From: an uncultured Candidatus Saccharibacteria bacterium
GTDB taxonomy: Bacteria > Patescibacteriota > Minisyncoccia > Phycocordibacterales > GWA1-40-21
DNA length: 44,056 bases
Direction: 5' to 3'
NCBI GenBank assembly: GCA_964363425.1
Contig: CAYIIG010000001.1
Location: forward strand, 1 to 44,056
Positions 9,523-35,716 of the stretch are shown here, in pieces. The first letter of the stretch is position 1; each line of letters starts with the position of its first letter. The notes beneath the pieces were generated by a model. That model did not search any database and had not been told where the DNA came from. It saw only the letters and a list, made by a program, of their open reading frames with translations. A program made the position numbers and the translations under genes.

Positions 9523-10032
9523 ATGAAATTAATAATTATAAATGGAAGCTCTTGTTCTGGAAAAAGCACTATTATAAAAAACATAATGAGAGAGAAGAAT
9601 CATTACTTTCACCTATCTTATGATTCTCTTAAGTGGCAATTTTCTCAATATGCCTCTGGTAAATACTATGAGGAGATTCACATGGTTATGGTGTCCATAC
9701 TTGATACTATGTGTAAATTGAAATATAACATAATAAGCGAAGCTCTGAAGAAAGAATCGAGGGAAGAGATTATTGGATTAGCTAAAGAGTATGGATACGA
9801 AGTATTAGAAATTAATCTGGAGGCTGACTGGAAAGTATTATCTGAAAGATTTGACGAGAGGGTAGCAATAGCATTAGCGAATCCAGAAAAAAAAATCGCC
9901 AATCTAAGCAAAGACAGATTCAAAGAACTTTTTGAAAGGTATCAGAATGAAAAAAATCCTTTAGCTCTTACTTTCAGGACAGATACGCAAAGCGTAGAAA
10001 ATGTTTCAAGTGACATAATGAAACTTCTGTAA
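9523..10032 (+). CDS. P-loop NTPase / small-molecule kinase-like protein
   Basis: 169 aa; Walker A INGSSCSGKST at the N-terminus. Size and layout resemble adenylate/shikimate-kinase-like AAA proteins. Specificity unknown. Confidence 0.55.
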   Translation: MKLIIINGSSCSGKSTIIKNIMREKNHYFHLSYDSLKWQFSQYASGKYYEEIHMVMVSILDTMCKLKYNIISEALKKESREEIIGLAKEYGYEVLEINLEADWKVLSERFDERVAIALANPEKKIANLSKDRFKELFERYQNEKNPLALTFRTDTQSVENVSSDIMKLL

Positions 10033-25425: not shown

Positions 25426-27165
25426 CTATTTCACTAATTTCCCGATATCATCAACTTCTTTCTTAATAAATTTCTCGGCATCTTCCACATCTCGTTTAAA
25501 TTGCTTAAGAATCTTATCTTCTTCTTTTGTAAGCTCTCTCTTAGTGTGAGTTTTTTCAAGAATTTTTATGGTTTCTTGCACATTCTCCTTCAATAAATTA
25601 AATGAGTCGCTCACAGCCGATGAGGCTTCTCGCGTTTCTTTTCGAATTCGCTTTTTCAAAAATAGGAATTTATGCCAACTGTACCAAACAAGTACAATAA
25701 TGAGAACTATCAAGGCTATAAGCGGAATAAGGACAGCAAAGAAACTAACAGCCCAAGAACCAATCCGCAAAAACGCTGACTGGATAACCTTGATTGTAAT
25801 TTTCTCACCAGGCAAACTTTTTGCGCCTCTATCACCCTCAACTTCCGCCCAAAATTTGTAGACACCATCTTGCATTTTTTCCTCAGAAACGAAAGTAAAT
25901 TTCCCGTCTTGACCGCTTTTAATAATAAAGCTTCTTTCATTTTCTTTATCCATTTTGAGCCAAACTGTCACTTTGCTATTAGGGTAAGTAGAGCCTTTGG
26001 CAATGAGAGTCTCACCGCTCGTCAATTCTTTTGAATACTCTGTAAAAATCGGCGCCTCTAAAGGCTTAATAATAAATTCCTCGGTGTTGACGGAATAATT
26101 TTCCGCCTTATCAAACGCCTGAACTAAAATATTTCGTTTGCCGGGATTTTGCGGAAGTAATGTATATGGATTAGTTTTCACAATTTCCGGCGCCACATTG
26201 AAAAAATCGCCCTCGCCGATTTTTATTTTGTAATAATTAACGCCGGACAGAGAATCCGTGGTGTCAAAAACCACTGTCGGTCTTGGATTTTCCGTTTCGT
26301 TGCCATCAATGAATTTTATCTTAAATGGCTTTGGCGGTTCCGTGTCAATTTGGAATCGGAAATGGGATATTTCTCCCCAACCTTTAGAGTTACGAAATTG
26401 GGCGTGAAAATAATGGATACCGTCAGTTAAATCAGGTATCTCTTTCTTACTGATGGCTGGCGAATAAACCACAGTTGGTGTGGAGCGAGGAAGATCGCCA
26501 ACCGACAGTCTTACCGCTGTCACATCGTCCGGGACTTTCCATTCAAATGACGAGTCTTTTTTAGAATACCAGCTATTTGGGTCAGAATGAGTTGGTGAGG
26601 ATATTTCCGGAGCGGATGGTGTGCCGTAAACTATAGTGGGAGTGGTTGATTCTGTAATTGTTGAACCTTTACTATCCAGACTAAACCGAGCACTTCCAAG
26701 ACTTTTTAAAATATTAGTACCTTGGCCATCATTGGCAAGCACGGAACCCGATGGGAAATTAAGATCGACGACACCTAATGCTTTTACCTTAAAACTAACC
26801 GTGATAATTTTACCGGAAGAACCCATAAAGCCCGGATTAAGGACTATTCCTTCAAAATTCACAGTGCCTTCCTTATTTGAAAACGACGGCTCCTGAACCC
26901 ATAGAGAAAAGATGGACCCGGATTTGGAAACCGATACAACTTCCAGCTTATCTTGCGGAAATGAAATCACTCCGGACGCGGCATTCAAAGCTTGGTCGGC
27001 GCTTGAAACATACACAGTTGTCGACAACAGGCTTCCGATAGCGTTGGAACCGGAAGAAGGGGAAAAATACAAATTCGCCGCATTAACGACATTTCCAACA
27101 CTGAAAAATGCCAGCAGTAAAATAAAAAATAGTAAAATATATTTTATTTTTTGAATTTTTTCCAT
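25426..27165 (-). CDS. Cohesin-like domain surface protein with a C-terminal TM anchor and cytoplasmic coiled-coil tail
   Basis: Starts at ATG 27165 (MEKIQKIKYILLFFILLLAFFSVGNVVNA signal peptide). N-terminal module: LYFSPSSG...VYVSS...LNAASGVISFPQDKLEVVSVSK...FEGIVLNPGF...GKIITVSFKVKALG...LANDGQGTNIL. Ig-like middle region, TM WAVSFFAVLIPLIALIVLIIVLVW, then a Lys/Glu-rich tail. Confidence 0.65.
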   Translation of the reverse strand: MEKIQKIKYILLFFILLLAFFSVGNVVNAANLYFSPSSGSNAIGSLLSTTVYVSSADQALNAASGVISFPQDKLEVVSVSKSGSIFSLWVQEPSFSNKEGTVNFEGIVLNPGFMGSSGKIITVSFKVKALGVVDLNFPSGSVLANDGQGTNILKSLGSARFSLDSKGSTITESTTPTIVYGTPSAPEISSPTHSDPNSWYSKKDSSFEWKVPDDVTAVRLSVGDLPRSTPTVVYSPAISKKEIPDLTDGIHYFHAQFRNSKGWGEISHFRFQIDTEPPKPFKIKFIDGNETENPRPTVVFDTTDSLSGVNYYKIKIGEGDFFNVAPEIVKTNPYTLLPQNPGKRNILVQAFDKAENYSVNTEEFIIKPLEAPIFTEYSKELTSGETLIAKGSTYPNSKVTVWLKMDKENERSFIIKSGQDGKFTFVSEEKMQDGVYKFWAEVEGDRGAKSLPGEKITIKVIQSAFLRIGSWAVSFFAVLIPLIALIVLIIVLVWYSWHKFLFLKKRIRKETREASSAVSDSFNLLKENVQETIKILEKTHTKRELTKEEDKILKQFKRDVEDAEKFIKKEVDDIGKLVK

Positions 27166-28031
27166 AAAATTTTCCAGACAAGATACACTATAATTAGTAG
27201 CGTTATTATAACAAAGATTGTGTAATCGCCATACCATGCGCTCGCCTTTTGCGCCGAAATCACGACGACTCTTTTATTGCCTGACTTATCAACTGCTTTA
27301 ATAAATATTTTCCTGTCAAGCGGTTGATGTTTTAAAAGATACGGGCTCTCCGAAACACCAAACCAACCCCATTGTCCCTCACGCACTTCATAATGATCAA
27401 TCCCCGATGCTTTATCTTGCGTCGCAAAAACGAGAAAATATTTTCCGGCAAATATGTTTTGGTCGCTCGCAATGGTCGGCTTGAAATCCTCCGGTGGCTC
27501 CGTGTCTGGAGGAATTTGTAATTTGTAACTTGTAACTTGGCTTTCTGATTTTAAAATTCTAAATTCAAAATTCAAAATTTTCGTTTCTGCTTCTGTTCCT
27601 TTTCCATCGTTCCTCAATGCCTTTATATCGCGAATTTCGATTGCGCCACCACCTTCTTTCTTGGCGCGAAAAATGACTGAAAATAAAAGCTCCTTTGTGT
27701 CCGAAAGTCCTCCCGGAGTAATACCTGAAAAAGCAATGACACCTAATTGAAAAGTGTGCGGTTTTTCAATCCAAAAATTGATAGCGGAATTACCATCTAA
27801 GACTTCTTTTATCTCCAGCAAATCGGCAGGAAAAACAATTTTACCCTCAATAGCGTTAATTGATTCTTCTTCCGTATTTAAAAACACCTGCGCCAAAAAT
27901 TCTTCATTCGGCGCGAAAGATTGATTTTTCGCGTCAAAAAATACCTCTACTGCGAAAGCTGGGGTAAACGCAAAAAACAATATGATGCCTAATGATGCGA
28001 TTGTTGTCTTGATTTGTGATATGTGTCTCAT
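27144..28031 (-). CDS. Cohesin-like domain surface protein with a C-terminal TM anchor
   Basis: Starts at ATG 28031 (MRHISQIKTTIASLGIILFFAFTPAFA). Module: VFLNTEEESINAIEGKIVFPADLLEIKEV...IAFSGITPGG...LLFSVIFRAKKEGGGAIEI...LRNDGKGTE. C-terminal TM TIFVIITLLIIVYLVW. Overlaps the next gene by 22 nt. Confidence 0.62.
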   Translation of the reverse strand: MRHISQIKTTIASLGIILFFAFTPAFAVEVFFDAKNQSFAPNEEFLAQVFLNTEEESINAIEGKIVFPADLLEIKEVLDGNSAINFWIEKPHTFQLGVIAFSGITPGGLSDTKELLFSVIFRAKKEGGGAIEIRDIKALRNDGKGTEAETKILNFEFRILKSESQVTSYKLQIPPDTEPPEDFKPTIASDQNIFAGKYFLVFATQDKASGIDHYEVREGQWGWFGVSESPYLLKHQPLDRKIFIKAVDKSGNKRVVVISAQKASAWYGDYTIFVIITLLIIVYLVWKILWKKFKK

Positions 28032-28041
28032 AATATGTGAT

Positions 28042-29100
28042 TTACCCCGTCCAATAAAACGCCAAGATTGAAAAATCAACCAAATTAACCTTGCCGTCTT
28101 TGTTTAAGTCAACGGAAGGTGGCGGAGACGGTCTGTTATGCCAATACGCGGCAATGGAAAAATCAACAATACCAACTTTTTTATCATTGTTTAAATCGCC
28201 TTTTTCCGGCGCTCTTTTAAAATCTTCTGCCAAAATTGTTTTTGTGCCGACAATAAAACTAACAACCTTACTGAAGGAGCTTATCTCTCCATTGAGCGCA
28301 ACTTTAGATTTCGCGGTGTGTTGTCCGATTTCAAGAATAGATGTGTCAAAATTAAACAAATACGCTCCACTTGCGTCAGATATTTTTTTCACAAAAAATT
28401 CTTCTTCCGAATTAACGCTGATAGTAATTTCCGATGCAGGCGTACTTTGTCCAAAAATTACGATGTTTTCGCCTCGTTTTACCTCGCTTTTGTCTACCAC
28501 GATGGTCGGGGCGATAAAAATACCGCTTACTCTGGTGGTCGCGCCGAAAGTGACGCCTACTGGAAAAGTCAAAAGAGAGGAACGGATGCCTTTGTTATCT
28601 TCTGAATAAACCGAGAAAATATAATTTCCGCCGGAAAGATTAGATAGCGTTATTTGAAAATTGGCATCCGCCCCCGCAACTGTAGTGGCGGCAATTTGCG
28701 CGTCTTTGAGAAGGGTTACTACGCTTTTGGGATACGCGCGACCGGAAAAAATGGCTTGTGGCGACTGGCGCGGAAATTCCCCTCCTCCCCCACCACCTCC
28801 TCCGCTGACCGCGGAAGAAGCGCTGGAAGCGCTACTGGAATAACAAGCTACAGTGTTAAATTCGCAAGAAAGTCCGCAAGTCAATGTTCCACTTGAAAAT
28901 CCGCGATTAATGCAAGTCGCTCCTCCTAAAGCAGAACCATCGCATTGTTCCCCGACACCGATTACACCATCTCCGCAAAGGCTTATTTTTATCGTTGCGG
29001 TGATTTCAGCCGCGAAAATTTCCGACCTAAAAAGCGTGGTGAAAATAATTATAAGAATAGATACGAATGTTAAAACGGCATATAAATTTTTGCTGGACAT
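28042..29100 (-). CDS. Secreted dockerin-domain protein with an N-terminal Cys-rich repeat and Gly/Ser linker
   Basis: 352 aa; signal peptide. CGDGVIGVGEQCDG...C...C...C resembles the Myxococcus-type Cys-rich repeat. SSSASSASSAVSGGGGGGGG linker, two Ig-like segments, and a C-terminal duplicated Ca-binding dockerin repeat (GDLNNDKKVGIVDFSIAAYW / VDLNKDGKVNLVDFSILAFYW). Confidence 0.8.
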   Translation of the reverse strand: MSSKNLYAVLTFVSILIIIFTTLFRSEIFAAEITATIKISLCGDGVIGVGEQCDGSALGGATCINRGFSSGTLTCGLSCEFNTVACYSSSASSASSAVSGGGGGGGGEFPRQSPQAIFSGRAYPKSVVTLLKDAQIAATTVAGADANFQITLSNLSGGNYIFSVYSEDNKGIRSSLLTFPVGVTFGATTRVSGIFIAPTIVVDKSEVKRGENIVIFGQSTPASEITISVNSEEEFFVKKISDASGAYLFNFDTSILEIGQHTAKSKVALNGEISSFSKVVSFIVGTKTILAEDFKRAPEKGDLNNDKKVGIVDFSIAAYWHNRPSPPPSVDLNKDGKVNLVDFSILAFYWTG

Positions 29101-29109
29101 TGAACATTA

Positions 29110-29730
29110 TTATTTTCTTACGCCTATGTTGAATGAAAAGAATTTTCTAAAAAGAAAGATGAGAACGGCAAACAAAACAACACCAAGTCCCACCCATGAC
29201 CATGGTGAGTTAATTCTAAAAAACGCCTCGGTTCTATGTAAAACAGCTTGCCAGATGTTCGCGGGCGCCACCGTAAAAAACAATTTTGTAGCGACCGCTA
29301 TGCCGACAGTGGTGCCGGGCTTATCAAGCACCCCCACAGGACCGCTTTCAATAAATGCGAAATAATCACCTTGCTCCGCTTTCACTGGAACAATCATAGT
29401 GACCAAAACTTCTTGGCTTTCTGTGGGCAAAATCGTAAAAGTGGAGGGACTGAAGACAAACCAATCTTTGCGTGGCCGCATCTGGGGATTTTCCTGATGA
29501 TACGCAACCCCCATTCCGTAAGTGGTCGTTTCGTCACCTGTATTGAAAATCCGCAGACTTGGAAGAGTATAGATTTCTCCAGGCTTCACTAATTCCGTCA
29601 ATCGTATTTCTCCCGCTCCTATGCCTACACCGACTTTCGCGGAAACTACAGAGAAATACAGAGAAAATAATGCTGTGAATAGCATGATGGTCGCCAAAAC
29701 GCCTAATGTTATATGTCTAAATAATTTCAT
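29110..29730 (-). CDS. Signal-peptide plus C-terminal-TM beta-sandwich protein (architecture resembles DUF916/DUF3324 anchors of Gram-positive WxL loci)
   Basis: 206 aa; signal peptide ending VVSAKVG. Beta-rich core (IRLTELVKPGEIYTLPSLRIFNTGDETTTY...FTILPTESQEVLVTMIVPVKAEQGDYFAFI). C-terminal TM WVGLGVVLFAVLIFLF followed by RK. Confidence 0.6.
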   Translation of the reverse strand: MKLFRHITLGVLATIMLFTALFSLYFSVVSAKVGVGIGAGEIRLTELVKPGEIYTLPSLRIFNTGDETTTYGMGVAYHQENPQMRPRKDWFVFSPSTFTILPTESQEVLVTMIVPVKAEQGDYFAFIESGPVGVLDKPGTTVGIAVATKLFFTVAPANIWQAVLHRTEAFFRINSPWSWVGLGVVLFAVLIFLFRKFFSFNIGVRK

Positions 29731-29762
29731 TTTTGTATCGTTACGAATAAATATTGTCAGTC

Positions 29763-31673
29763 CTATTCGCTCAAAACATTAATTAATGCATTTGCAGAAT
29801 TAATCAACACATCTGCGGTTATCTGATCAATAATGCCATTCGCAAGATCGTTCTCAGCCTTATTTATAAAAGCATAAAGTTGATTTAAGGCTGGTGTAAT
29901 CTTGCCATCTTCAATAAACTTCTCAACCTTTTTCAGGTTGGAAAGATATGAATTTTCAATATTTGTCGCAAAATCAGCAAGAACTACACTATCAACAATA
30001 TCTACCGCTTGCTCTACCGGTGTTGGATTGTCTCCCACAGTAATAACTACATCAAGTTGAGCTGTCTCTGATGGGGTGCCATTATCAGTTGCAAAAAAAG
30101 AAACGACATATACGCCTCCTTGAGTTAAATCTGGCGTCCAGACAAATACTCCTGTTTCGGCATTAAATATCGCGCCCACAGGCAGAACGCTTGTCGAAAG
30201 AGTTACTATGTCGGTGTCAAGATCAGTAGCCACAACCACAAATTCAAGAAGAGTTTCTTCTTGAATTTCCTGCGGTCCAACAAAATCGAAAATCGGTGCC
30301 CGATTAACATTCCCCACTGTGATAGTAACGAGTTCAACATCAAGCTCCATTGGTGTCCCGTCGTCGGTAACTGTAAATTCAACATCCGTATAATTGCCTG
30401 CGTCTTCAAAGCTCGGTACCCAACTAAATGTTGCTGTATTGGTATCAAATGTTGCTCCTGCCGGTAGGTTGGAGGCACTAAAAGTTAAATTATCGTTGTC
30501 TGAATCAGATGCTGTAATTGTAAACTCAAGAAGTTGTCCCTCTGTCACAATTTTGTTTCCGATTAGGTCAAGAGTAGGTGGAGTATTGATTGGTTGAGAA
30601 TGGATGCCTCCAAATAAGTACACGGAACCCACAAGCTCGGGACTGATACCATCTCTAGGTGCTCCTATGAGTAGATCTCCGTTGAGCGTCGCCACAACAG
30701 AGAAACCAAAGAAGTTATTGTACTCTATGGCTGGGCTATCCATAGTTATAAGCAATTCCCCTGTAATACCATCAAATAGATACGCTGAACCTCCTAGTGT
30801 AGCAAGTGTATAATTATTATATGCCCCAACAAGTAAGTCACCATTTGGTGTTATAGCGACAGAGAAACCAAAGAAATAAGCCTTCTCTGGATATGGATTG
30901 CTTATCGTCAATTTCAGTGCACCTGTAGTACCATCAAACAGATACACTGAACCAGTATCTGTAGCAATAGTATCGTCTAAGCGTGCTGAAATAAGAATGT
31001 CCCCATTTGGCGTTGTGGCAACATGCTCGCCAAACAAATCACCTAACTGTGGAGTTGGGTTATTTACAGTCAGAAGCAATGCACCTGTAGTATTATCAAA
31101 TAGATATGCTGAACCAGCATTACTGGCACCAGTATCATCCGCAGGTGCTCCAACGAGCAGATTTCCATTTGGTGTTACTGCAACAGATGCGCCGAAGCTA
31201 TCCATTTGTTTTGGAGTCGGGTTATTTATAGTTAACTTTAAAGCCCCTGTAGTACCATCAAACAGGTACACTGAGCCAGAGCCGACTTCGCTAGAATTAT
31301 CATATATCGCACCAATCAATAAATCTCCATTTGGTGTCGTGGCAACAGATGCGCCAAAGCGTTCACCGCCTGGCTCCGGTGTTGGATTATTAATAGTCAA
31401 CTTTAACTCACCTGTAATGCCATTAAATAAATATACTGAACCCGTATCCGTAAAGATAGCATCATCAAAAGGTGCTCCAACAAGTAAATCACCATTTGGT
31501 GTTACGGCAATGGCACTACCGAATTTTTCATTGTACAGGGAGGTAGGATTATCAATAGTTAAAAGCAAACCTCCTATTGCCGCTTTCACATAGTATGTAG
31601 TTATCAATAGAGACAATAAGACCATTAACAACATTGTAGACTTAGTAAGGATTTTGAATGACGGTGTTCGCAT
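29763..31673 (-). CDS. FG-GAP repeat beta-propeller protein with two cadherin-like/putative-Ig domains and a C-terminal helical domain
   Basis: Starts at ATG 31673 (MRTPSFKILTKSTMLLMVLLSLL). About six to seven repeats of FG.SVA.TPNGDLL.GA......GSVYLFDG.TG.L.LT..NP. Then two LTFSASNLPAGATFD...FSWVP...AGNY...TDDG modules and a helical tail. Confidence 0.85.
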   Translation of the reverse strand: MRTPSFKILTKSTMLLMVLLSLLITTYYVKAAIGGLLLTIDNPTSLYNEKFGSAIAVTPNGDLLVGAPFDDAIFTDTGSVYLFNGITGELKLTINNPTPEPGGERFGASVATTPNGDLLIGAIYDNSSEVGSGSVYLFDGTTGALKLTINNPTPKQMDSFGASVAVTPNGNLLVGAPADDTGASNAGSAYLFDNTTGALLLTVNNPTPQLGDLFGEHVATTPNGDILISARLDDTIATDTGSVYLFDGTTGALKLTISNPYPEKAYFFGFSVAITPNGDLLVGAYNNYTLATLGGSAYLFDGITGELLITMDSPAIEYNNFFGFSVVATLNGDLLIGAPRDGISPELVGSVYLFGGIHSQPINTPPTLDLIGNKIVTEGQLLEFTITASDSDNDNLTFSASNLPAGATFDTNTATFSWVPSFEDAGNYTDVEFTVTDDGTPMELDVELVTITVGNVNRAPIFDFVGPQEIQEETLLEFVVVATDLDTDIVTLSTSVLPVGAIFNAETGVFVWTPDLTQGGVYVVSFFATDNGTPSETAQLDVVITVGDNPTPVEQAVDIVDSVVLADFATNIENSYLSNLKKVEKFIEDGKITPALNQLYAFINKAENDLANGIIDQITADVLINSANALINVLSE

Positions 31674-31763
31674 ATTTATATTTTTATTGATTAAAGATAC
31701 CATCAAAATAGTACTAAAAAATACTATTGCTTTGCTATTTGCGTATGTCAAACAAACAACTTT

Positions 31764-32219
31764 TTATTGTGATACGACTTGAACGGTGACAGTAATTGAT
31801 TTTTGGGCGAAGTCAGTCGAAACGGTTGGTGTAGTTAACCGAAAATCAAGGTTTTGTGTTACAGCACCGCTAGGGAATGTCGACGAGGCGGTAATGTATG
31901 TAGTATCGTCCGAGAATTTCATATAAGTCGAACCTGTTGTTGTTGAGACTTCGTGGATAAAAAGATTTGATCCAGTAGTTGGGTTAAGTGTCCACTGCGT
32001 TCCGCCTGTGGCATGAGTTGATTTTACATTCAATTTTGCGGCAGAGCCGTCGTTAGTTACTACCTGTGTCTCGCCATTGCCTACGGTAGTAGTTGCGGTA
32101 TTAAGAGCAACCGAACCATAAGCAATATTACCATCAGCAACAGAAACGGCAAGACTAACGGCTGACACTGTCGCAGTAACATTGGCGGTGGTGGCCGCTC
32201 TGGTCATCTGCCACAACAA
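31764..32219 (-). CDS. Small secreted subunit, paralog of the C-terminal domain of the 941-aa protein; 5' end is out of frame with its likely start (ATG 32313) because of a G9 tract
   Basis: The track ORF starts at TTG 32219. Removing one G from 32289-32297 joins it to ATG 32313, adding MKQDFTPPIAFNDFRAYIKIWALVVIIAGGLLLWQ (n-region plus hydrophobic helix). Confidence 0.7.
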   Translation of the reverse strand: MLWQMTRAATTANVTATVSAVSLAVSVADGNIAYGSVALNTATTTVGNGETQVVTNDGSAAKLNVKSTHATGGTQWTLNPTTGSNLFIHEVSTTTGSTYMKFSDDTTYITASSTFPSGAVTQNLDFRLTTPTVSTDFAQKSITVTVQVVSQ

Positions 32220-32415
32220 AAGACCGCCGGCAATAATAACGACAAGTGCCCATATTTTAATATAAGCGCGAAAATCATTGAAAGCGATGGGGGGGGGTAA
32301 AATCTTGTTTCATTTTGTTTTTAAAAAATTTAATTAATAATTATTAAAAAACCGAATTTAATATCAACATTATATCTCGCCAATTATATCAAGCAAGCCC
32401 GAGTTATCCACACCT

Positions 32416-35241
32416 TTATGGCGCCACCGCTTGCACGGTGATAGTGATTGATTTTTGATTATAATCCGTTGACAAACTGGGTGCAGTCAGTCGGAAATCA
32501 AAACTAACCGTTCCGCTTACCGCCACAGACGGCTTAGCGGTAACATAAGTCGCGCTGTCTGGCATTACTGTCCATGTCGAGCCCGTCGTCGTAGAAAATT
32601 CGTGTTTAAATTGATTTGTCCCTATCGTGGAAGCGAGTGTCCAGCCTGTCCCGCCTGTAGCATCACTTGATTTTACATTTAATTTTTCCGCGACATTGCC
32701 GTCGTTGGTCGCAGTCTTGGTATAAGTGGAGCCAATCGTCGTCGTTGAATTGCTTAGACTTACGAAGCCGTAAGTAACATCTCCAGCCGGCGTGACAGAA
32801 ACTGAATAAACCGCAACCGACCTATAACCCCTGTCAGAGGTGGAAATTTGCTGGGTGGCACCCGTGGCATTCTCAACAACTTTAAAATATCTCCCGCTTC
32901 CATCGGATGGCGCGCCTGTATCATCGTAAGTGGAAGCAGTCGCTCCGTCTATGTTTGAATAACTCGCGTCGCTGTCGGCTACCGACCTTTGCCATTGATA
33001 AGTTAGAGAGCCGACTCCGATATACCCGCGGTCATGACTTGTATCAGCCGATGAGGCGCCGGTGGCACTCACTGTGGCATAAAAATATCTTCCGGCTCCG
33101 ATATTGGCGCTTTGCCCGCTTACGCTTAAAGAAACATGGTCTGCGGATGTCCCATCGCTCCCTGTGGCCACACCTGCGGTTATCGTCGGCGACGGCGCAG
33201 TGGCGTCGTCGTAAGGCGCGGTTGTGGCACCGGACAAAATAGAGTGCCCAGAATCCGCGTCCCCCGAGCTTCTGTACCACTGATATGTTAATGAACCTAC
33301 ACCCCGATATCCACGATCCGAAGCTGATATTTGTTGAGTAGCGCCAGTAGCATTAAGAACTGCTTTATAATACCTGCCCGCTCCAACATTAGCCGAAGCG
33401 CCACTAATACTTAGGGTTACTTTATCGGTGGCTGAGCCATCCGTGGCGCTCGCCGTTCCAGATGTGACAGTCGGCGCCGGCGCGGCAGTGTCGGCGTAGG
33501 TAGAGGCAGTCGCCCCTCCAATATCCGAATAGCTCGCGTCACTATCGGCGGCCGATTTTTGCCACTGGTAAGTGAGAGCGCCGACTCCTCGGTACCCGGT
33601 ATTGGTGGCGCTGTCCACGCTACTGCCGGCAGTATTAGAAGCCACCACTTTATATGTATGGGTGGTGCCATTATTGGCTGAGGCGCCGGACAAACTTAAA
33701 TCTACTTGCGCGGTACTCGCGCCATCACCGGCTACCGCCGACCCAGCCGTGATGGTAGGCGCGGCTGCCCCTGTGTCGTTAAATGTCGCCACATCGCCCG
33801 CCGCGCCCAAGTCCACTGCGTCTCGCCAAACATGATAATCAGTTGCTCCGCTAGATTTTGTCCAAGTAATTGTAACCTTGTCTGTATAGGTACCGTCGGT
33901 GGCCACCACATTGGTCGGCGCGTCAGGAACAGGAGTATAAGTCGCGTAAATGGAATACTTGTTGGTGGTGCCAGTAGGTACTAATGGATTTGGCCAAATA
34001 AATGGTCCCGTATTGGCATCCGTCTGCCCTTGACCGGCTGTCCCTACATCATAATAAATAACATGAGTTCCCGAACCGCTACTGCCCCATTCGGCTAATA
34101 TATAATTGGTTCCGCCGGTCAGACTTGGTTTTGTCGCATAAGTAACCGTTCTCCACGCGACGCCTGTTGCCGCTGGTGTTTGCGCGGTACTGCCGCTATT
34201 AGCTATCAAAGCATTGGAAGAGCTCAAATAAATAGCTGTGCCAAAAGTTTTTGCCGTACCCGAAGGATTGCTATAAACAGTTATTGAATCTACCGCCCCA
34301 GCGTTGGTCCCCATAGCAAACACTGAACCTTTTATACTAGCTTCTATTGTTATATTACCAGCCGTGCCTATGGTTTGGTATCCGAAAACCAACCCCGAAG
34401 CGTGATATATCGGATAGACCGCATTATCCAAAAATGTTTGCGGAATAGTAACCGTAAGTTTTTTGGTGGCGACATCTATGTTCAAATCTCCGTAAGTAAA
34501 GTTTCCGGCCGAATCGTCTATTTTCGGTCTGTAAATCTGCCCTACTTTTCCCGTTCCATAATTTTTTCCGCCAACATAGTTTAGAGGAACATTTTTGTAA
34601 TATATGACATACGAGCCCATTGAGTCTTTATTAACAAAGTATTCTTCAATTGCTTTTGCTTCTATCTCCGCGTCGGTATAAATCGGCTGATAGAAAAATT
34701 CCAAATTTTCCATTTCTATGTCAAAACTTAAAACATTCGTTGTCGGTTTTTCATTTAAAATCCGCTCAATCTCATATCCTCCGCCCGGGAGCGTTGAGGA
34801 ATCCGCCAGTTCATAAAAATGGACTTCTTCTTTCGGGGTCTTGTATTTTATTTTATCACCCGCCACATCAAAATCTTTGTCTGCTTCGGTCACTGTTTCC
34901 ATATTCGGAGTTAGCTTAAACCTAACCTCGTCCCATTTTTTAAATTCAAAAGACGGTTCAAAAGAAGATGCGGTTTCGTTGCCGATTCTTACCTCGGTCT
35001 TTTCCTCTTTATCTGCTTTTATGGTTTTATGCAAAGAAGCGCCTCTCATTTCGTACTTACCAGACATCTGGGAAGCGTTAAATTTATTTTTAACCGCCTC
35101 TTTGGAAATTTTATTTGTATCGCCTGTTCCCGTGGCATAAGTCATCGTCTGAGGCCAGCCGGAAAAAGTCCAACTAAAAATTAGAAGGAATATCAACAGA
35201 AATTTTGAAATTTTACTTTTCCACATTTTTGCTATTGACAT
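32416..35241 (-). CDS. Large secreted repeat protein (putative adhesin): N-terminal beta-rich region, tandem repeats of about 96 aa, C-terminal subunit-like domain
   Basis: 941 aa; signal peptide KFLLIFLLIFSWTFSGW. Residues about 441-807 carry repeats with GYRGVG.LTYQW..S..D..Y..I.GAT...Y.D..AP.PT...G.A...DG.S...V.LS.SG.SAN.G. Residues about 808-941 align with the 151-aa protein. Confidence 0.85.
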   Translation of the reverse strand: MSIAKMWKSKISKFLLIFLLIFSWTFSGWPQTMTYATGTGDTNKISKEAVKNKFNASQMSGKYEMRGASLHKTIKADKEEKTEVRIGNETASSFEPSFEFKKWDEVRFKLTPNMETVTEADKDFDVAGDKIKYKTPKEEVHFYELADSSTLPGGGYEIERILNEKPTTNVLSFDIEMENLEFFYQPIYTDAEIEAKAIEEYFVNKDSMGSYVIYYKNVPLNYVGGKNYGTGKVGQIYRPKIDDSAGNFTYGDLNIDVATKKLTVTIPQTFLDNAVYPIYHASGLVFGYQTIGTAGNITIEASIKGSVFAMGTNAGAVDSITVYSNPSGTAKTFGTAIYLSSSNALIANSGSTAQTPAATGVAWRTVTYATKPSLTGGTNYILAEWGSSGSGTHVIYYDVGTAGQGQTDANTGPFIWPNPLVPTGTTNKYSIYATYTPVPDAPTNVVATDGTYTDKVTITWTKSSGATDYHVWRDAVDLGAAGDVATFNDTGAAAPTITAGSAVAGDGASTAQVDLSLSGASANNGTTHTYKVVASNTAGSSVDSATNTGYRGVGALTYQWQKSAADSDASYSDIGGATASTYADTAAPAPTVTSGTASATDGSATDKVTLSISGASANVGAGRYYKAVLNATGATQQISASDRGYRGVGSLTYQWYRSSGDADSGHSILSGATTAPYDDATAPSPTITAGVATGSDGTSADHVSLSVSGQSANIGAGRYFYATVSATGASSADTSHDRGYIGVGSLTYQWQRSVADSDASYSNIDGATASTYDDTGAPSDGSGRYFKVVENATGATQQISTSDRGYRSVAVYSVSVTPAGDVTYGFVSLSNSTTTIGSTYTKTATNDGNVAEKLNVKSSDATGGTGWTLASTIGTNQFKHEFSTTTGSTWTVMPDSATYVTAKPSVAVSGTVSFDFRLTAPSLSTDYNQKSITITVQAVAP
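32821..33921 (-). repeat. Tandem coding repeats (about 290-nt units, three to four units) inside the 941-aa gene
   Basis: Protein-level repeats at residues about 441-551, 552-646, 647-741 and 742-807. The last unit is shorter. The region is Ala/Gly/Thr/Ser-rich and GC-rich. Confidence 0.75.
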
Positions 35242-35311: not shown

Positions 35312-35716
35312 TCATTTATATAGCTTCAAGAATCCTTCTTTTATTTTGTTAAAATCATCACTATCCACCTGACCGAGACGGCTGGAAAGCCTCCTATGGT
35401 CAATGGCACGAATCTGATGAAGGCAAATAAACATATCTTTCCCCGTATGTTTTATGTGAACATACCAGCTCCCTTTGCGTTGTTGTGTTGTCGTCGGAGC
35501 TACAAGAAAAAATGTATGGGATAACTTTTTTAATATCAAGGCGGGACGAGAAAACAATTTGCTTTTTCCGTTCATTTCCGATCCCACATTCTCTCCAAAA
35601 CTAACCCACCACAAATCGCGCTCTTTTACGAGTGGAGGCTCTGCCTCAGTATTATGCAATTTCTCTTTAACTGTCACCCATTCTAAAAATCGTTTAATTA
35701 TATTACTCATAATCAA
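35312..35716 (-). CDS. PemK/MazF-family toxin-like protein (no cognate antitoxin gene seen)
   Basis: 134 aa; RDLWWVSFGENVGSEMNGKSKLFSRPALIL, VAPTTT and HQIRAIDHRRL match MazF/PemK fold signatures. It has an N-terminal extension of about 30 aa. Confidence 0.8.
   Translation of the reverse strand: MIMSNIIKRFLEWVTVKEKLHNTEAEPPLVKERDLWWVSFGENVGSEMNGKSKLFSRPALILKKLSHTFFLVAPTTTQQRKGSWYVHIKHTGKDMFICLHQIRAIDHRRLSSRLGQVDSDDFNKIKEGFLKLYK

Follow-up and report, generated by a model that had tools for sequence, protein, structure and literature searches.

A probable contingency tract in the signal-peptide-coding end of a small secreted-protein gene from a groundwater Patescibacterium

The run of nine C at positions 32289-32297 (minus strand; G9, GGGGGGGGG, on the plus strand) of the 44,056-bp stretch of DNA analyzed here, referred to throughout as the window, is, with a probability that we place at about 0.72, a hypermutable contingency tract, found here in its OFF phase, at the 5' end of a gene for a small secreted surface protein, in the part that encodes the signal peptide; the host is a groundwater Parcubacteria-type bacterium (Patescibacteria/CPR). 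Slipped-strand mispairing at replication would lead to the gain or loss of one C. With 8 or 11 C, translation from the ATG at 32313 would read through to produce a 182/183-aa precursor equipped with an export signal, and with 9 C it would stop after 12 codons, the mature domain being made only without its signal peptide, if it is made at all. ON/OFF control would be exerted at the level of translation, by inclusion or exclusion of the signal peptide, and the sampled population would be in the OFF phase. We infer that switching in the window strain is reversible and occurs at high frequency, and that the switch is selected by fluctuating pressure on the surface structure, for example from host attachment or phage adsorption. 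At the level of the gene family, repeated evolution of a position-specific switch is better supported than is switching in the window strain itself.

The reading frames around the tract, which with its 5' flank is written ATGAAACAAGATTTTA-Cn on the coding strand, are consistent with this arrangement. From the ATG at 32311-32313 (minus strand), which is the start of the full-length frame, the sequence reads ATG AAA CAA GAT TTT ACC CCC CCC CAT CGC TTT CAA TGA, and the TGA at 32275-32277 (minus strand) closes a 12-codon peptide, MKQDFTPPHRFQ, in the C9 state. With eight C, the translation is instead MKQDFTPPIAFNDFRAYIKIWALVVIIAGGLLLWQMTRAATT..., which joins the ATG in frame to the ORF at 31764-32219 and adds an n-region and a hydrophobic helix. 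The first-pass annotation had described both the nine-C and the eight-C frames in these terms, and our minus-strand translations agree with it. C11 restores the frame as well, with one more Pro than C8, and C7, C9, and C10 are out of frame, so a change of a single base in this homopolymer inside the ORF shifts the frame, as in phase-variable genes. The predicted precursor, MKQDFTPP(P)IAFNDFRAYIKIWALVVIIAGGLLLWQMTRAATT... (182/183 aa for C8/C11), consists of a charged n-region, a hydrophobic core (IKIWALVVIIAGGLLLW), and a T-R-A cleavage-type motif, followed by the mature domain. The signal-peptide-coding region, as delimited by translation and by alignment with full-length homologues, spans 32196-32313 (minus strand) with the tract inside it, and the cleavage site presumably falls at the conserved (T/A)RA-A(T/S)T motif. 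The remaining part of the gene, 31764-32195 (minus strand; 143 aa and the stop), encodes an intact beta-sandwich domain that is under purifying selection and carries an invariant W-x-L. Because two homologues that share the MKQ[DN]FTPP start (P0018 and P0281) begin with MKQNFTPPIA... and encode it with C8, the N-terminus restored by C8 is, as judged from these sequences, genuine.

It is clear from our results that neither base composition nor codon usage accounts for the tract, and it is in this sense over-represented, as a contingency locus would be. It is the only run of six or more G or C in the window, and base composition predicts only ~0.04 G/C runs of nine or more over this length. Among the Pro codons of the window's genes, CCC is used least (12.7%), and ACC makes up 19.7% of Thr codons, giving p ~0.003 for the encoding of Thr-Pro-Pro as ACC-CCC-CCC, and CCCCCC is used for none of the 21 other Pro-Pro dipeptides. 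Likewise, a stretch of eight Gly in the gene at 28042-29100 is encoded by GGA GGA GGT GGT GGG GGA GGA GGG, with no run longer than five. The window also contains one A9, five A8, and twelve T8 runs, as expected at 40% G+C; the initial impression that the tract was the only long homopolymer in the window consequently stands for G/C runs and fails for homopolymers overall.

The protein encoded by this gene belongs to a family of ~170-183 aa with at least 225 members at E values up to 1e-3, and the named matches are all from Patescibacteria, including Parcubacteria, Kaiserbacteria, Vogelbacteria, Minisyncoccia, and others. Full-length members carry an N-terminal signal peptide, and their mature part has 36 positions that are invariant in the alignment, among them those of the W-x-L motif. 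The repaired small protein matched no family in Pfam or NCBIfam, and a sequence search of the PDB with the family profile returned no match. Its AlphaFold model is an all-beta sandwich with a mean pLDDT of 71, the first 40 residues being poorly modeled, and in a Foldseek search of the PDB with this model nothing was significant (best E 0.86); the pilin matches, to FimG, Csu, and PapE, had E > 1. The protein is presumably surface-exposed. Gene callers render OFF alleles of the family as N-terminally truncated or wrong-frame proteins of 147-165 aa, such as those beginning MRGGLLLGH..., MCYRRSAYCGGG..., and MFILLLWHLSWGGG..., with the result that public annotation of the family is misleading with respect to export and that the full-length exported form is systematically missed.

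Positive support for a selected switch comes from comparison with related loci, 74 of which were gathered from genome and metagenome collections, with further contigs added by exact protein look-up. When the 72 loci with the 5' end of the small gene present were grouped at ≥97% nucleotide identity, 53 lineages resulted, and in 23 of these the ~200-nt signal-peptide-coding region contains a G/C run of at least seven. In total, the 5' regions (10.8 kb) hold 22 such runs and the rest of these loci (226 kb) holds 3 (Poisson P ~2e-40), an enrichment of ~150-fold at this end of the gene. The tracts occupy three or more different positions in the signal-peptide region, in the form of poly-C encoding Thr-Pro-Pro at codons 6-8 (the type found in the window), poly-G as GGG ~10 residues ahead of the cleavage motif (MKQNLRV...VVGGGFLLGH), or poly-G as GG(G) where the hydrophobic core begins (FRFxILVGGV...). 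Poly-C at the same codons is present in five lineages, comprising the window (C9, OFF, in frame at 8 or 11) and four others, of which two are ON with C8 (L006, and L023/L092/L093) and two are OFF with C10 (L090, in frame at 8 or 11, and L091, in frame at 9 or 12). Synonymous divergence among these lineages is high, with a dS of 0.94 between the window and L006 and saturation between the window and L023. The comparison of orthologous loci for the presence and length of the tract, which the first-pass annotation had proposed as a check, thereby yielded poly-C in four further lineages (C8, C8, C10, and C10) and poly-G tracts that vary between otherwise identical alleles.

Among the poly-G lineages, that of GW2011_GWA1_40_21 from the Rifle aquifer is represented by G8 (L026, L094), in-frame G9 (L007/L096, L097), and G10 (L039, L095) alleles that are identical over the 75 nt upstream and 60 nt downstream of the tract, and in one Hainich lineage an in-frame G10 allele (L014) and a G9 allele (L054) are otherwise identical, although tract-length differences of this kind between low-coverage short-read assemblies could in part be homopolymer miscalls. 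At the protein level, clusters at 90% identity mix 170/171-aa ON forms with shifted forms of 163-165, 155-157, and 149/150 aa, whose N-termini are alternative-frame translations of the same DNA. For the lineage closest to the window in the mature domain (P0002), the ON form was found on five contigs and shifted forms on three and one. The frame is broken at the tract in eight of the nine broken tract-bearing lineages, L073 being the exception; one of these alleles, L071, is OFF at G7. Another, L025, has G9 like its ON sister L024 and yet is out of frame, as the T run that follows its tract is one base shorter, and this one-base loss at the junction of the G run and the T run was counted as an indel at the tract boundary. 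Lineages that lack a tract are intact in 28 of 30 cases, the exceptions being L051 and L070. The 5' end also appears to be mobile as a unit. In a blastn comparison of the window with its nearest relative, L088, the alignment breaks over the tract and signal peptide (32298-32226) and resumes in the mature domain, and the window uses GGC GGT for the Gly-Gly in which L088 has its poly-G tract, so a 5' module with its own type of tract appears to be exchangeable between lineages and to have been swapped here, with the poly-C type in the window and the poly-G type in L088. The enrichment of tracts, the alleles that differ only in tract length, and the purifying selection described below all support, at the level of the family, the original proposal of an ON/OFF surface subunit caught in the OFF state.

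Homopolymers are classical sites of indel error, and the same annotation had allowed that the length of the tract might instead be an assembly error, in which case the true length would be eight and a miscall would have added one base. The 147-aa gene call that represents the window allele (P0001) is present on five more contigs (L001-L005), four from ENA per-sample assemblies and one from Logan (run ERR3858135), with the ENA contigs derived from 0.1 and 0.2 µm filters of Hainich well H43 in different replicates. Over 1.1-4.0 kb, these contigs match the window at 99.9-100% identity, with one SNP, and C9 is found in five of five, so that together with the window the strain has C9 in six of six assemblies and no tract-length variation among them. 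The Hainich data were generated on an Illumina NextSeq (2x150), and metaSPAdes was run separately for each filter replicate (PMC8672522). A sequencing or assembly artefact is very unlikely given that separately built assemblies agree, that Illumina short reads are not homopolymer-error-prone, and that no other gene in the window is truncated, even where it contains an A8, T8, or A9 run; among the intact genes are mreBCD, the genes for PBP2 and an AddA-like helicase, ftsW, murG, and four aminoacyl-tRNA synthetase genes. The poly-G artefact that NextSeq can introduce at read ends was rejected on the grounds that the tract lies internally between unique flanks and is the same in five assemblies. 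The point that would favor a miscall, apart from the susceptibility of homopolymers, is that contig coverage for L001-L005 is low (~1-4x), so these are majority calls from few reads at which minority tract lengths would be invisible. Neither the C8 product nor the C11 product was found when a collection of 15 billion proteins was queried for exact matches.

The absence of the ON allele from that collection, together with the presence of C9 in all six assemblies, is what might be expected if the window allele were simply a fixed loss of function, that is, an ordinary frameshift in a young pseudogene in which the tract is a mere mutational hotspot rather than a selected switch. A sister lineage offers a parallel, as its G7 OFF allele (P0017) is unchanged in at least 24 contigs, which indicates that an OFF state can persist and that switching may be slow. 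The gene has also been broken in other ways, by a TGG to TGA nonsense change in the signal peptide at ~2995 of L051, by an extra A just after the cleavage motif at ~3165 of L073, and by a frameshift farther downstream in L070, in which the 5' end is intact. Such lesions suggest that in some populations expression has repeatedly been selected against or constraint has been relaxed. However, the mature domain continues to evolve under constraint, with a pairwise dN/dS of 0.14 between the window and L088, 0.08-0.12 between other OFF alleles and their ON relatives, and 0.08-0.25 over the pairs compared, those with OFF alleles included. In the window gene, the ORF is uninterrupted on either side of the tract, and every residue that is invariant in the family is retained. 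Given this dN/dS and the intact ORF on either side, the small gene of the window is, on present sequence evidence, not a decayed pseudogene. A uniform nine-base tract in a decayed gene had been named in advance as an outcome that would count against a switch, and of its two elements uniformity was found, at the level of the consensus, and decay was not. Moreover, the tracts are ~150-fold enriched and are conserved across lineages with saturated synonymous sites, and a mere hotspot in a gene under purifying selection would be expected to be purged, as it has been elsewhere in these genomes. Taken together, these considerations make a fixed loss unlikely.

It is also conceivable that the C9 allele is expressed anyway, so that the state described here as off is in fact low. 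tRNA-Pro is known to be prone to +1 slippage at CCC-C, and it is also established that transcription can slip on long homopolymers. A +1 slip of tRNA-Pro on CCC-C would yield exactly the ON protein, RNA polymerase might slip on the C run, or translation might begin weakly at the ATT at 32301-32303 (minus strand), which lies upstream of the tract in the frame of the mature domain (*NKILPPPIAF...) and might act as a non-canonical initiation codon when nine C are present. The sequence accommodates such recoding to the extent that a +1 shift inside the C run yields MKQDFTPPIAF... and that the frame of the mature domain is open from just past the ATG. Sister alleles, however, are off-frame in both directions, with G7 requiring a shift of -1 or +2, G8 of +1, G10 of -1, and C10 of +1 or -2, and no one programmed shift can account for the whole family. 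Most alleles in the family, moreover, are ON and have in-frame tracts. We therefore consider recoding quite unlikely and retain, as the preferred reading, a contingency tract that controls the gene by translational ON/OFF switching.

The genes that surround the tract indicate what kind of structure such a switch might affect. Immediately upstream, the gene at 32416-35241 (minus strand) encodes a 941-aa secreted protein whose last ~133 residues (window ~32419-32820) resemble the mature domain of the small protein, with 54% identity between the small protein and residues 808-940 (BLASTP, E 1e-36). Related loci repeat this order of a large gene followed by a small gene, and the N-terminal modules of the large proteins are very different. 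The 102-nt gap upstream of the small gene contains two promoter-like sites on the minus strand, each recognized as a consensus match, namely TGGATA-16-TATAAT with a TG extension at 32383-32410 and TTGATA-16-AATAAT at 32340-32367; as the small gene would have its own promoter, the switch would act on the small gene alone. Downstream lie a gene for a 662-aa FG-GAP/He_PIG repeat protein (29763-31751, minus strand), a gene for a 206-aa protein in which one PapD-like Ig domain is preceded by a signal/TM helix and followed by a C-terminal TM helix (29110-29730, minus strand), and a gene for a 352-aa secreted protein with a dockerin-like C-terminus that is a conserved member of the cluster (28042-29100, minus strand). 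In the window, the FG-GAP/He_PIG gene separates the small gene from the PapD-like gene, which is its conserved partner; in most related loci (L081, L090-L092) the two adjoin with no FG-GAP/He_PIG gene between them. A Foldseek search with the model of the 206-aa protein retrieved PapD-type fimbrial chaperones (FaeE, DraB, Caf1M, and FimC) at E 1e-6 to 1e-5 and also the Enterococcus faecium WxLIP structures 9i1y/9i25 at E ~1.5e-5, the PapD-type chaperones scoring better. PapD_N gave weak matches in 21 of 36 members of the 206-aa family, and Pfam DUF916 and DUF3324 gave none. A chaperone-usher pilus was considered and rejected, since the cluster contains no usher-like Pfam match, the chaperone-like protein is single-domain and membrane-anchored, and the pilin fold of the small protein is not significant.

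The organization of this cluster (28042-35241, minus strand) recalls that of the WxL clusters of Firmicutes, which encode a small WxL protein, a large WxL protein, and a WxLIP composed of DUF916, DUF3324, and a TM helix (PMC10599100). As in those clusters, the mature part of the small protein consists of the shared domain alone, the large protein ends in the same domain, a partner with an Ig fold and a C-terminal TM helix is conserved, and a W-x-L motif is invariant. The arrangement of a small and a large protein with a shared domain is thus found here, and the WxL domain itself, defined by its Pfam profile and dual Trp-x-Leu motifs, is not. There is one W-x-L motif instead of two, the partner has one Ig domain instead of two, matches to Pfam DUF916 and DUF3324 are absent from the cluster, and, with E values as high as 10 allowed, Pfam WxL still matched neither the window protein nor a single one of 34 family members. 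In the absence of these profile matches, we do not accept membership in the WxL clusters, and the resemblance is best regarded as one of analogy. The cluster may nevertheless be a previously undescribed CPR counterpart of the WxL clusters. To our knowledge, no SSR switching of WxL genes has been described.

Phase variation by SSR is a textbook property of host-adapted pathogens such as Neisseria, Haemophilus, Campylobacter, and Mycoplasma, and a search of the full-text literature found no report of it in Patescibacteria/CPR or in this gene family; the nearest items dealt with a repeat gene of a Gracilibacterium that is hypervariable and with the effects of TM7x on the host side. The mechanism proposed here is a classical one, for which pilC is the closest precedent, and it is the host group and the gene family that are new for such a switch. 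In Neisseria gonorrhoeae and N. meningitidis, pilC contains a poly-G tract of G9-20 within its reading frame (Jonsson et al. 1991, as summarized in a passage of PMC5953494), and in the account given in that passage it shares with the gene described here a homopolymer in the ORF near the 5' end, a secreted product associated with a surface structure, a frame that is set ON or OFF for translation by changes in tract length, and the coexistence of tract-bearing and tract-less alleles among related taxa. Unlike pilC, the gene reported here, whose switching is predicted from sequence comparison, belongs to a different protein family and to a free-living or episymbiotic groundwater CPR bacterium rather than to a mucosal pathogen, and its tracts occur at three or more positions of the signal-peptide region, as poly-C or poly-G depending on the lineage. 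The pilC tract is likewise reportedly situated in the signal-peptide-coding part of the gene. Campylobacter jejuni provides a second point of comparison, as it harbors dozens of poly-G/C contingency loci and is known to lack mismatch repair; its G/C homopolymers of ~8-11 nt in surface-structure genes, otherwise rare in a small AT-rich genome, resemble the situation in the window, and mixtures of tract lengths at the population level are a feature of that organism (PMC8355987, PMC3025981). Where C. jejuni has dozens of loci, one tract locus was found in the 44-kb window.

A broader interpretation, to which we would give even odds, is that groundwater Parcubacteria (CPR) run true contingency loci in which the small subunit of an undescribed WxL-like surface complex, with a PapD-like membrane-anchored partner, is toggled by slippage in the signal-peptide region, the switch having been invented repeatedly (as poly-C at codons 6-8 and, at two further sites, as poly-G) and exchanged as a 5' module. 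If this is correct, the Candidate Phyla Radiation would gain its first described case of SSR phase variation, and uncultivated, ultra-small groundwater bacteria would exert stochastic ON/OFF control over a component of their surface. Such switching would also imply strong fluctuating selection, by host-cell attachment or phage adsorption, on the surfaces of episymbionts in an oligotrophic aquifer, and would mark the switched component as ecologically critical and as a candidate host-attachment factor or phage receptor. In addition, tract length would be a countable marker that could be tracked in the existing time-series metagenomes from Rifle and Hainich.

Several further features of these loci are worth recording. 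In the GW2011_GWA1_40_21 lineage, a gene for a protein of 107-117 aa is located between the large and small genes (L007 2450-2803 and L094-L097), for which the precomputed Pfam assignments are bAvd (PF22296) and 23S_rRNA_IVP, a type of DGR accessory protein; no reverse transcriptase was found within 6.4 kb of the locus, and the window does not contain a bAvd-like gene of this type. The longest coding A/T run in the window, A9 at 9887-9895, is situated inside an intact AAA_33/zeta-toxin-like kinase ORF (9523-10032). A MazF/PemK-like toxin gene (35312-35716, minus strand; Pfam E 5e-14) lies between the PBP2 gene and the surface cluster, with no obvious antitoxin ORF beside it. Finally, the ORFs at 25426-27237 and 27144-28079 (both minus strand), which encode cohesin-like or Ig-like surface proteins, overlap by 94 nt (27144-27237), and the real start of the downstream gene is probably an internal ATG (MEKIQKIKYILLFF...).
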